Below, piece after piece: positions 1,970 to 26,268 of a stretch of DNA of 32,000 nt. Within the stretch, counting starts at the first letter, position 1. Each line of letters begins with the position of its first letter. The position numbers and the translations under genes are program-made. The stretch comes from Candidatus Korarchaeum cryptofilum OPF8 (GTDB lineage: Archaea; Korarchaeota; Korarchaeia; Korarchaeales; Korarchaeaceae): the NCBI RefSeq assembly GCF_000019605.1, contig NC_010482.1, forward strand, positions 390,001-422,000, in the 5' to 3' direction. Below the pieces are notes generated by a model that was not told the DNA's origin, did not search any database, and worked only from the letters and a program-made list of their open reading frames with translations.

Positions 1970-6527
<4,558 letters not shown>

Positions 6528-23824: not shown

Positions 23825-24862
23825 ATGTGCCCCATGGGCTTGGATCTAGAGTTAGCTGTAGCAGCTCTGAAGCTCGTTAGGGACATTATGAAAGTGAGGG
23901 AGGGGGAGGAGGTAGTCATAACTGCTGATACTGGCTGTGACTGGAGGGTCGCTGAAGCTACCGCTCAAGCAGCCGCCCAACTTAATGCGAAGCCCATAGT
24001 AGTGTGGTACATGTCCCCCCCAGGTGTGGGGAAGGCAGCAGATCCTCACATACCCCTAAAAGCCTTGAAAGCCCTTTTGAGCGAGTCGGATGTCTGGATT
24101 GAGTTCAATAAATCCTGGTTGCTCTATTCGACACCTTATGAGAGTGCGATGAGCGCCGGTAAGGTTCGTTATATCTGCTTAGTTGGGATGGATGCTGATA
24201 TGGCCACTAGGACTATAGGGAGGGTGAAAGTCCCCCTCCTCTACGAGTTCCAGAGGAGGTTAGCTAGGATAACGGAGAGATCGAGGCATATGAGGATAAA
24301 AACACCGGCTGGAACTGATGTGGAATTTGAGAATGATAGGGAGAGGCCCGTGCTCGTGGAAGGGGAGGTAGAAGGGCCCGGGGAGTACATGCTCTTCGGT
24401 CAGGTTGATTGGGCCCCAGTAGAGGATAGCATAAATGGATCCATAGTATTCGATGGATCCGTATGGCCCCCATCTGAGCTAGGTCTCCTCAGGAGTCCCA
24501 TAAAGCTGCACGTTAGGGATGGGACTATAGTCAAAGTTGAGGGAGGTAGCGAGGCCAAGGTCTTCGAAGCTTGGCTCAAGTCTTTCAAAGATCCGAATAT
24601 GCTCAGGATAGCTCACCTATCCTACGGTTGCAATCCCGGAGCTAAGCTCACTGGGAACATATTGGAGGATGAGAGGGTTTGGGGTTCCTCAGCAGTTTCC
24701 AGAAAGTTAACTTTATATAACCTTATCTGGATATACCTACACGATAAAATTTATAAATTGAGAGATCTCGCATTCTGTGCCCGATATGTGGTGATACGTA
24801 GCACCGAATGGGCACATGCACAGGATGAGGGGAGCCCCGTTGCCCCTGAAAGCCATCAATGA
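23825..24862 (+). CDS. M29 aminopeptidase / NicX-like family protein, with the 3' end apparently replaced (likely truncated or a pseudogene)
   Basis: Family-like sequence runs up to ...LRIAHLSYGCNPGAKLTGNILEDERVWGS (about 24690). The last ~55 codons are AT-rich promoter-like DNA and structured RNA-like sequence with no family resemblance. GGAGG lies 7 nt upstream of ATG 23825. Confidence 0.7.
   Translation: MCPMGLDLELAVAALKLVRDIMKVREGEEVVITADTGCDWRVAEATAQAAAQLNAKPIVVWYMSPPGVGKAADPHIPLKALKALLSESDVWIEFNKSWLLYSTPYESAMSAGKVRYICLVGMDADMATRTIGRVKVPLLYEFQRRLARITERSRHMRIKTPAGTDVEFENDRERPVLVEGEVEGPGEYMLFGQVDWAPVEDSINGSIVFDGSVWPPSELGLLRSPIKLHVRDGTIVKVEGGSEAKVFEAWLKSFKDPNMLRIAHLSYGCNPGAKLTGNILEDERVWGSSAVSRKLTLYNLIWIYLHDKIYKLRDLAFCARYVVIRSTEWAHAQDEGSPVAPESHQ
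24701..24720 (+). promoter_or_regulatory. Strong BRE/TATA promoter inside the 3' tail of the M29-like ORF
   Basis: agaaagttaaCTTTATATAA, with a second TTTATAAA at 24750-24757. Confidence 0.5.
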
Positions 24863-24984
24863 GGATAGCAGCAGTGCTATCCGAGATGGAACGGGTAGTA
24901 AATGTTAACTACCCGACAACGGAGATTATGGCTGAAGCAAGCGATACTCGGAATGCATGATTGGAGCGATCGATAGACTTTTTT
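24745..24984 (+). ncRNA. Candidate structured non-coding RNA or long structured leader, class unknown
   Basis: A BRE/TATA lies upstream. Nested helices: 24770-75/24951-56, 24776-82/24810-16, 24790-93/24802-05, 24851-56/24928-33, 24863-70/24875-82 and 24892-98/24909-15. A T6 run at 24979-24984 could act as the terminator. The ends are estimates only. Confidence 0.35.
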
Positions 24985-26268
24985 CATGTAGAAACTAGCG
25001 TTCCTCTCATTAAGTTCGGAGCCCATCGAAGGAAATGGGAACCGTTATACCGCTGCGTTGGCAGATCACCGGGTGAGAGGCTGAGTAGGAATTCGATCAA
25101 GTTTTTAGCAGCTCTTCTGCTCCTCATCATGGGTGCACTAGTGCTATATGAGAGGAAGCCCGGCTTCGTTGTGGCGAGTCCCCTCGATTCTTACACGGAT
25201 TTCTCAATGGACCTCACCTCCAGGATAGGGCTAGGGGAGAGGAACACAGCTATTTCCCCATATAGCGTCTACATCGCCCTTCTCATGCTGACAGAAGGTG
25301 CTGGAGGCGATACTAAGGACGAGCTCATGAGAGCGATGAGGATCTCCTCCCTGGATGAAGCTAGAAATTGGTTCAACGCGAGCATCGAGAGGTTCACGGG
25401 TGTCGAGAGAGGGGCGAGGGCTGAGGTAGCTGACAGCGTATGGGTGAAGGAGGGATTCCCGGTCAGTGAGAAATATCTGGAGGTCGTCAGAAAATACTAC
25501 TTAGCTGAAGTGCTCAGCTTCAGAGATCCAGCTGATGCCGTGCCCAGGATAAATGGATGGATCTTCAATAGAACTAACGGGCTGATAGATAAGGTAGTCG
25601 ATGAACTGGATCCTAGAGCTGTGGTAGTGCTAGTGAATACGATCTACTTCAAGGCGAACTGGACGATTCCGTTCGAGAGAGTTGAGAAGGGGGATTTCCA
25701 CTCCCCTGATGGCATTGAGACAGCTGACTATCTCAGGGGCCGAGTTAAGGCCAATTACTTAGATGCTGGGGATTACGTAGCTCTGGCCCTCAGTTATAGT
25801 GGTACTGATGTCAAGTTCGTCGTCCTCATGCCTAAGGGCGATCTGAAAGGATTCTTGGGTGGCATGGGGAGGGAGAAGCTGCTGGAGATATTCGAGAAGC
25901 TCTTCAACTCGTCTGAGAGTGATATAGACCTATCATTACCGAAGTTCGATATAGATAGCGGCCCCCTCGACCTCGAAAGCGTGCTGGTATCGATGGGCAT
26001 GAAGAAGATATTCATCCCAGGGGAGGCTGATTTAAGCCCCATGGTGGAGGGGAGCGAGGAGCTGTGCGTCGATAAAGTGCTGCACAGGGCTAGGGTGAAG
26101 GTGGATCTCTACGGGACCGAGGCTGCTGCTGCGACAGCCGTAATAATAAGATTGACAGCAATGCCTTCCCAGGAGATCTCAGTGAAGATAGACAGGCCCT
26201 TCGCTTTCTTCCTAGTCGATCCAGAAAATAAGGCGATACTCTTCGCTGGGAGCTTCGTCCATCCTTAA
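24961..26268 (+). CDS. Serpin (serine protease inhibitor) with an N-terminal signal-anchor
   Basis: SPYSVYIALLMLTEGAGGDTKDELMRAM, NTIYFKANWTIPF, hinge and reactive-centre loop GTEAAAATAVIIRLTAMPSQ, DRPFAFFLVD. TM segment IKFLAALLLLIMGALVLY. The only in-frame start upstream of the TM is TTG 24961. ATG 25129 is an alternative that would remove the anchor. Confidence 0.85.
   Translation: MERSIDFFHVETSVPLIKFGAHRRKWEPLYRCVGRSPGERLSRNSIKFLAALLLLIMGALVLYERKPGFVVASPLDSYTDFSMDLTSRIGLGERNTAISPYSVYIALLMLTEGAGGDTKDELMRAMRISSLDEARNWFNASIERFTGVERGARAEVADSVWVKEGFPVSEKYLEVVRKYYLAEVLSFRDPADAVPRINGWIFNRTNGLIDKVVDELDPRAVVVLVNTIYFKANWTIPFERVEKGDFHSPDGIETADYLRGRVKANYLDAGDYVALALSYSGTDVKFVVLMPKGDLKGFLGGMGREKLLEIFEKLFNSSESDIDLSLPKFDIDSGPLDLESVLVSMGMKKIFIPGEADLSPMVEGSEELCVDKVLHRARVKVDLYGTEAAAATAVIIRLTAMPSQEISVKIDRPFAFFLVDPENKAILFAGSFVHP

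Follow-up and report, generated by a model that had tools for sequence, protein, structure and literature searches.

The segment at positions 24684-24922 of a 32,000-nt stretch of the Candidatus Korarchaeum cryptofilum OPF8 genome (contig NC_010482.1, positions 390,001 to 422,000, forward strand; hereafter the window) is very probably, judged from sequence comparison, a non-autonomous element of the IS607 family that carries a tnpB-3'/omega-RNA module. It stands between a truncated NicX/M29-like gene and a serpin gene. We put at roughly 0.85 the probability that the best explanation of the whole locus is an IS607 mini-element with a guide-RNA scaffold, used in trans and followed by an adjacent deletion. 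Protein-less IS607 mini-elements with an omega-RNA scaffold are an already-known kind of selfish element, here in an archaeal lineage; the host is a hyperthermophile. A first-pass annotation, made from the letters of the window, had described the same place as a structured RNA candidate bounded by a promoter and an oligo(T) run, and had left the choice between a stand-alone small RNA, a riboswitch-like or attenuator-type leader of the serpin gene, and the structured terminus of an element that had truncated the M29-like gene by inserting there. The boundaries and the left part of the element comprise the following features (^ marks an element boundary or junction in all sequences given below).

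24682-24683, no strand assigned: core GG dinucleotide of the left junction, which is also the deletion junction; every copy is preceded by ..(A/T/G)(A)GG
24684-24922, plus strand: whole non-autonomous element, 239 nt, with no open reading frame (ORF), no terminal inverted repeats (TIRs) and no target-site duplication (TSD)
24684-24711, plus strand: left-end tip, candidate TnpA-binding region, homologous to the left ends at C1:1381569 and 1543509
24711-24720, plus strand: TATA box (CTTTATATAA) of the parental tnpA promoter; the preceding AGAAAGTTAA is read as a B recognition element (BRE)
24741-24743, plus strand: vestigial tnpA start (ATG to ACG; tacACGat in the window, tacATGat in the full-length element)
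24750-24757, plus strand: second TATA-like box (TTTATAAA), 19 nt upstream of hairpin 1

The identification starts from a repeat search with the window sequence in its own genome (genome G000; 1,590,757 bp in one contig, C1), in which 24682-24923 proved to be repeated. A 93%-identical copy of the mini-element lies at C1:1335137-1334907, 24816-24922 is matched at 97% by C1:624186-624292, and weaker partial pieces occur at about six more sites. At two further loci, C1:1381569-1383428 and C1:1543509-1545371, the first ~40 nt and the last ~150 nt of the repeat stand 1.6 kb apart and enclose a 210-aa serine recombinase (TnpA) and a 393-aa TnpB; these are the full-length relatives. The TnpA at C1:1381629-1382261 scores 206.7 bits on the IS607 transposase model NF033518 (cut-off 110) and has the Pfam domains Resolvase, HTH_17 and MerR. 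IS607 TnpA is also present in genomes carrying these elements. Mini-element copies number two in G000, at least six in the sister species G017 (~235 nt each, left end joined to right end) and three in another genus (G047). Eleven copies with both a left and a right end are present in these three genomes.

The ends of the element were set by alignment as ...GG^(G/A)TTC(C/G)TCAGCAG...CCGACAACGG^. Past these ends the flanks of the 11 copies are 27-31% identical, which is the random level, and all copies conform to ..GG^(G/A)TTC...CAACGG^. At the sites homologous to two of the G017 insertions (L023 and L026) the G000 genome is empty and reads TTAGG^GAATAT and GAAGG^AGCC, placing insertion at GG; comparison of occupied and empty sites reveals no host bases duplicated beyond GG. 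The right end CCGACAACGG does not repeat the left end GTTCCTCAGCAG in inverted form. Insertion at GG without duplication or inverted repeats fits the published hallmarks of IS607, namely GG at termini and target, no TIRs and no TSD (PMC6188088; bioRxiv 10.1101/2023.11.20.567912), and the full-length relatives supply the serine-recombinase TnpA expected of that family. Multiple insertions with unrelated flanks, together with sites that are polymorphic between genomes, indicate that the mini-element is mobile. For the second G000 copy (C1:1335), no empty site could be read in 21 genomes of the genus, in which the homologous region is absent. In a related genome, G016, the mini-element is absent at the window locus, which is intact, and the genome yielded no matches to the covariance model described below, none to TnpB and no above-cut-off match to TnpA.

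The left ~92 nt of the element (24684 to ~24775) align with the left end of the full-length IS607 elements. The aligned stretch includes AGTTAACTTTATATA, ~30 nt before the tnpA ATG, and the TATA box of the window aligns with AGTTAACTTTATATAG, ~30 nt upstream of that ATG in the full-length element. What the first-pass annotation took for a textbook archaeal promoter is hence the tnpA promoter of the parental transposon. All motifs listed in the first-pass annotation were found at the positions given there, including the BRE/TATA agaaagttaaCTTTATATAA at 24701-24720, TTTATAAA at 24750-24757, the helix arms and a T6 run at 24979-24984. The switch in composition that it located near 24690 is also real, at about 24685-24690. 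A leaderless transcript from the first TATA would be expected to start at 24741-24743. Among the 11 copies the left-end tip (24684-24711) is 89% identical and the left-end interior (24712-24775) 62%; GTTAAC at 24706-24711 within the tip recurs in the right end at 24904-24909, and the tip is a candidate binding region for TnpA. Despite its position in the interior, which is just 62% conserved, the second box is retained as TTTATA(A/G) in 10 of 11 copies and is a candidate for a dedicated promoter of the RNA. Scans for sigma-70 promoters and hairpin terminators, which are ill-suited to archaea, gave no matches.

The right ~147 nt (24776-24922) correspond to the 3' end of tnpB up to the right end ...CCGACAACGG. 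The right end of the element is 97% identical to the end of the gene for an intact 382-aa TnpB (C1:623130-624278), and the frame at 24822-24908 translates as RMRGAPLPLKAINEDSSSAIRDGTGSKC followed by a stop, which is the C-terminus, the last 28 residues, of that protein. The parental TnpB itself (the c624 type) terminates ...RMRGAPLPLKAINEDSNRAIRDGTGSKC and a stop. The first-pass statement that the reading frame crossing the block has no family resemblance is correct for that frame, and it is another frame, 24822-24908, that encodes the TnpB C-terminus. Upstream of it, 24775-24821 is the broken remnant of a zinc finger and translates LCPICGDT-stop-HRMGTC, so that hairpin 1 derives from the TnpB zinc-finger codons (CPxCG...PNGH), which are now interrupted by a stop. 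Between the two remnants, pairwise alignment with C1:624081-624292 places the scar of a 63-nt internal deletion. In the parent the deleted 63 nt fold as a separate 10-bp stem, AUGCCCGCG...CGCGGGCAU. The deletion is common to all mini-element copies in the three genomes, and since the protein-less copies share it, they go back to one founder that then spread. The parental c624 scaffold covers the last ~200 nt of tnpB; its P3 loop contains the stop codon, at a distance of 14 nt from the right end. The structured RNA thus takes the place that an omega RNA occupies, at the tnpB 3' end, overlapping the ORF and ending at the right end of the transposon. The 382-aa TnpB is the single intact cognate TnpB in G000; it scores 148 bits on NF040570 guided_TnpB (cut-off 100), and by inspection its D...E...D motifs are present. 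The scaffold comprises the following features.

24776-24816, plus strand: hairpin 1, outer stem tgtgccc/gggcaca, inner stem ggtg/cacc
24816-24821, plus strand: scar of the 63-nt (21-codon) internal deletion
24829-24832 with 24843-24846, plus strand: possible pseudoknot stem, GGGG with CCCC, whose loop holds the 5' arm of P1
24837-24922, plus strand: conserved three-way omega-RNA-like core with P1, P2 with P2a, and P3, from RNAalifold on 11 copies
24837-24842 with 24917-24922, plus strand: P1, ccguug with caacgg
24853-24857 with 24885-24889, plus strand: P2, ccauc with gaugg
24863-24882, plus strand: P2a, the variable hairpin capping P2
24892-24898 with 24909-24915, plus strand: P3, cggguag with cuacccg
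24906-24908, plus strand: vestigial tnpB stop TAA in the P3 loop, from comparison of the frame 24822-24908 with the c624 TnpB

The first-pass expectation that the region folds better than dinucleotide-shuffled controls was borne out. The minimum free energy (MFE) of 24765-24984 is -78.6 kcal/mol, compared with -60.0 +/- 4.3 for 200 dinucleotide shuffles (z -4.33; minus strand z -3.1), and the originally proposed block 24770-24956 reaches z -5.6 against shuffles. The structure signal is limited to 24776-24922 (z -4.4), with the core 24822-24922 at z -5.3; neither the AT-rich left part (z -0.1) nor the flank 24923-25007 (z -1.0) is structured. Three of the pairings proposed in the first-pass annotation have comparative support, namely those of 24776-24816, the 8-bp hairpin at 24863-24882 and the 7-bp hairpin at 24892-24915. 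Its two closing helices, gcattc/gaatgc (24770-24775 with 24951-24956) and agccat/atggct (24851-24856 with 24928-24933), do not: they pair the element with flank past 24922, which is different at every other copy, and we therefore treat them as fortuitous. In their place the copies conserve P2 (24853-24857 with 24885-24889) and P1 (24837-24842 with 24917-24922).

The covariance model R1, built on the three-way core and searched against 43 genomes of the phylum, returned 47 matches in 10 of them. In an alignment of the 34 distinct sequences 96.9% of the cells pair, and 12 of the 19 base pairs are changed on both sides, for example from G-C to C-G in P1, from U-A to C-G in P2 and from G-C to A-U in P3. 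The compensatory changes that the first-pass annotation had proposed to look for at homologous loci thus exist. Partners slid out of register pair at 25-55%, and none of 500 shuffles attains the observed values. Hairpin 1 is 87% identical among the mini-element copies, and the third pair of its inner stem covaries (GGUG/CACC in the mini-elements, GGAG/CUCC in the c624 type and GGC/GCC in the full-length IS607 type). The possible pseudoknot stem is the weakest helix, pairing in 78% of the cells, and occurs as GCCG/CGGC and GAGGAG/CUCCUU in other subfamilies; with it, P1 would plausibly become an H-type pseudoknot. Rfam cmscan returned noise only and no family for 24300-25400 (E up to 10) or for the parental loci L033 and L062 (E up to 1), the RAGATH-18 and IS605-orfB motifs included. 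The fold has the covariation support expected of an omega RNA, and it represents an omega-RNA family of the Korarchaeia that is absent from Rfam.

In TnpB elements generally, the template for the scaffold of the omega RNA, also called reRNA, spans the tnpB 3' end; the scaffold terminates at the right end of the transposon, and the adjoining flank serves as the guide. Among known systems, IS607-family transposons with TnpB and its omega RNA come closest; examples are CboIStron/IS607 (Zedaveinyte et al., bioRxiv 10.1101/2023.11.20.567912) and ISFba1 (Ren et al. 2024, PMC11061315). Like them, the full-length relatives of the window element combine a serine-recombinase TnpA with TnpB. Shared with them are GG at the target and the right terminus, the lack of TIRs and TSD, a scaffold that overlaps the tnpB 3' end and stops at ...CGG before a variable flank (the reported scaffold likewise ends ...CGG beside the guide; bioRxiv 10.1101/2023.11.20.567912), and a likely pseudoknot. 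The G-rich left flanks of the copies, (A/G)AGG(G), resemble the transposon-adjacent motifs TGGG, GAGGG and AGGAG reported for this group. In contrast to these systems, the window copy has no genes, its scaffold is not RAGATH-18 and has no Rfam model, it ends ACGG and not UCGG, one parental stem-loop is lost, and the host belongs to the Korarchaeia, with an archaeal BRE/TATA promoter.

Two kinds of non-autonomous element offer further parallels. Palindrome-associated transposable elements (PATEs) derive from IS200/IS605, contain no protein genes and in many cases specify omega RNAs that work in trans (Meers et al. 2023, PMC10055086). Like them, the window element is minimal and non-autonomous, retains its ends and the guide-RNA template, and needs TnpA and TnpB from elsewhere. 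PATEs, in contrast, end in palindromic hairpins, and a Y1 (HUH) TnpA moves them in single-stranded form, whereas the ends of the window element are of the IS607 type, with GG core sites on which a serine recombinase would act. Membership was rejected on the unstructured left end (z -0.1) and the serine recombinase as associated transposase, and PATEs are an analogue only. The element likewise resembles classical prokaryotic miniature inverted-repeat transposable elements in being short (239 nt), non-coding, multi-copy, an internal-deletion derivative of an insertion sequence and presumably mobilised in trans; lacking TIRs and TSD, it belongs there in a loose sense only.

The third part of the explanation concerns the two neighbouring genes and the flank that separates the element from one of them.

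23825-24683, plus strand: truncated NicX/M29-like gene, first 285-286 codons; the ORF reaches 24862 solely by read-through into the element
24923-24942, plus strand: flank directly 3' of the right end, in the position of an omega-RNA guide (agattatggctgaagcaagc); differs at every copy
24961-26268, plus strand: serpin gene (Pfam PF00079, E 1.3e-79), with its ancestral promoter and ATG replaced by the element plus 85 nt
24979-24984, plus strand: T6 run, possibly an archaeal terminator, located outside the element in flanking DNA

The closest solved structure to the upstream gene product is the 2,5-dihydroxypyridine dioxygenase NicX (7cn3, E 6.7e-11). Orthologs in G016, G017 and G015 have 344-351 aa and continue ...EDERVWG^AVEWGIGYQSPTF...RYG, and the window diverges from them at 24684-24686, which is the left junction of the element. 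The conserved 63-codon C-terminal tail was not found in a search of the whole genome, and the gene has hence been neither split nor relocated. In G017 the order is the intact gene, a nitroreductase-like gene (184 aa), a 103-aa gene, a 332-aa membrane protein gene, the element and the serpin gene, from which it follows that the roughly 2.3 kb separating the gene from the element's left end has been lost from G000. The junction bears this out: the window reads ...GTTTGGGGT^TCCTCAG, the G017 gene ...GTTTGGGGT^GCCGTGG and the G017 left flank ...GAGAAGGGT^TCCTCAG, so that the deletion junction lies in a GGGT common to the peptidase-like gene and the ancestral left flank. The third of the first-pass readings is thus right in essence, the block being the right end of an element at whose left end the gene is cut, but the sequence comparison points to another cause: the truncation was brought about by a later 2.3-kb deletion abutting the element, not by its insertion, and three further genes were removed with it. 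The deletion fits either a TnpA-mediated adjacent deletion at (T)GGG(G) or a microhomology deletion.

The 332-aa gene encodes a polytopic protein (G017 L021, 1038-2036, minus strand) and is absent from G000, where it was deleted, and also from G016; its patchy presence shows that gene content upstream of the serpin gene varies within the genus. At the same G017 locus an extra 50 nt directly follow the right end (L021, reverse complement of ~3611-3660, corresponding to window 24922/24923). They consist of an 18-nt duplicate of the right-end tip (TTAACTACCCGACAACGG) and 32 nt, with GG on both sides, and resemble a scar left by another round of IS607-type insertion and deletion at the right-end GG.

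On the other side, the serpin ortholog of G016 has its own TTTAAAT box and an ATG (MLPIGIKFG...), with the element absent. Homology between the window and this region begins only at 25008, and the native promoter and start of the serpin gene are therefore gone. The T6 run lies 57 nt outside the element, and G017 reads TTTTTATATAAAA at the same place; a terminator scan, ill-suited to archaea, found no stem-plus-T-run terminator. From what is known of TnpB, 24923-24942 would be the guide. The sequence after ...CAACGG is different at each copy and matches its own locus alone. Searches of the genome with the putative guides, including the window 16-mer, found no second target with fewer than two mismatches. 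With matches limited to their own flanks, the guides look homing-like, and there is no sign of TldR-type trans-regulatory targeting.

Taken together, these results suggest the following course of events. The element would have been moved in trans by the IS607 TnpA at C1:1381629-1382261, recombining at GG. An RNA would then start at the left-end promoter (near 24741) or at the conserved second TATA (near 24777-24780) and run through the scaffold into the flank, so that 24923 to ~24942 would act as guide. The intact cognate TnpB (C1:623130-624278) could load this RNA in trans and cut the 'empty' donor site after excision of the element, which would favour retention of the element; such cutting of the vacated site is established for IS605 and IS607 elements, and for PATEs it has been proposed. 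Later, the 2.3-kb deletion, joined at the GGGT beside the left end, removed the 3' end of the NicX/M29-like gene and the three genes next to it.

How far the RNA part of this course still operates is the point on which the readings differ. Conservation argues for function: among the 11 protein-less copies, identity reaches 85-92% in the scaffold and 89% in the left-end tip, well above the 62% of the left-end interior. Several observations weigh on the other side. The 63-nt stem-loop of every TnpB-linked copy is missing, and the scaffold may therefore be unable to bind TnpB. In the window copy, the MFE fold favours a local GGGG/CCCC hairpin over P1, which the parental region forms unaided. The first TATA is poorly kept among the copies, the pairing figures are somewhat inflated because the alignment was fitted to the model, no Rfam family matches, and recent spread or the needs of TnpA binding, rather than RNA function, could explain part of the high conservation seen in the right ~150 nt. 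A cognate TnpB was also not found in the assembly of G017, the genome with most copies, although the IS607 copies of that genome lie at contig ends and the absence may be an assembly gap. In view of all this, we rate the chance that the RNA is at present both expressed and used by TnpB as slightly short of even. Somewhat lower, if still substantial, is the chance that the element is an inert fossil, with the same IS607-derived identity and a fold that is a tnpB/omega-RNA relic without present function beyond having caused the deletion. The missing stem-loop, broken pairs in hairpin 1 and P2 of several copies and the lack of a TnpB in the G017 assembly all speak for such a fossil. It accounts less well for a scaffold and a second TATA kept well above the left-end interior in copies from two genera, for a deletion that removes one stem-loop cleanly and, being common to all mobile copies, did not prevent their spread, or for the presence in the genome of an intact cognate TnpB gene with a 3'-end scaffold core that matches the one in the window at 97% identity. 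A bolder form of the functional reading is tentative and, in our judgement, unlikely: a free-living guide-RNA gene, in which an archaeal promoter drives a minimised omega RNA that parasitises the single TnpB of another element in trans, the protein-less copies being defended thereby, and whose transcript may provide the serpin gene with its only upstream promoter.

The two explanations that place the RNA in the service of the host fare worse. Exapted to serve the serpin gene as promoter or 5' leader, the element would yield a transcript that reads through the scaffold and the T6 run, and the RNA or a bound TnpB would modulate the serpin. The element and the gene run in the same direction, 38 nt separate the right end from the first in-frame start (TTG 24961), the TATA and ATG that G016 retains as the ancestral state are missing from the window, and the arrangement is common to G000 and G017. 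Yet the element is a mobile repeat that adjoins unrelated genes elsewhere, the T6 run stands between it and the gene body, and G017 has a separate TATA-like TTTTTATATAAAA downstream of the element and a broken TTG frame. Nothing links the fold to the serpin; with the G016 gene served by its own TATA and ATG and the same structure lying beside unrelated genes, the riboswitch or attenuator of the first-pass annotation is abandoned and the leader role in general is improbable. Still more improbable, to the point of being barely credible, is a stand-alone cellular small RNA, riboswitch or attenuator unrelated to mobile DNA. The significant fold and the flanking promoter-like and T-run signals had suggested it, but there is no Rfam match, transposon ends bound the sequence, and the same sequence recurs beside unrelated genes at at least 10 other sites. 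The sequence moreover derives from tnpA-promoter and tnpB-coding DNA, and both size-defining closing helices cross the element boundary and are unconserved. The same origin rules out a CRISPR leader, a relative of tRNA, signal recognition particle (SRP) RNA or RNase P RNA, and the end of a group II intron.

The lead of a novel small RNA or riboswitch is thereby removed as false, and an IS607 mini-element as the one cause explains the composition break, the truncated NicX/M29-like gene and the odd start context of the serpin gene. With its exact ends known, a natural variant lacking a whole stem-loop and an intact 382-aa TnpB together make a testable minimal scaffold with a compact nuclease. 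If the variant is active, it would inform the design of minimal scaffolds and would demonstrate guide-only elements that use TnpB in trans in archaeal IS607 lineages; current concepts would be unchanged.

Some further observations concern the start of the serpin gene. The 85-nt stretch 24923-25007 is conserved in G017 and has no other match in G000 or G016. In G000 the only upstream in-frame start is TTG 24961. A 2-nt difference breaks this frame in G017, where the first start is consequently the ATG equivalent to 25130, which falls inside the signal-anchor helix of the serpin. Over the ~40 codons before ATG 25130 the changes between G000 and G017 are mostly non-synonymous (3 vs 1), and the N-terminal anchor of the serpin may no longer be translated.

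The remaining IS607-type elements of the genome are in various states of decay. In the second full-length element tnpA is frameshifted (C1:1543573-1544201; a 139-aa ORF, with the rest in another frame) and the 393-aa tnpB is intact, so that the genome retains a single intact IS607 TnpA. Two elements, at C1:623083-624292 (382 aa) and C1:861910-863079 (389 aa), have a tnpB but no tnpA, and in both the tnpB frame is open. The former retains an IS607-type left-end remnant (AGTTGACTTTATATAC) directly upstream of tnpB, and the tnpA promoter therefore appears to drive tnpB there. Two more protein-less relics, at C1:890183-890432 and C1:1413670-1413433, belong to a different subfamily, in which the left end is joined to a tnpB 3' end that retains the stem-loop absent from the window element. 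The relic at 890 has an orthologous counterpart in G017 with an identical right flank.

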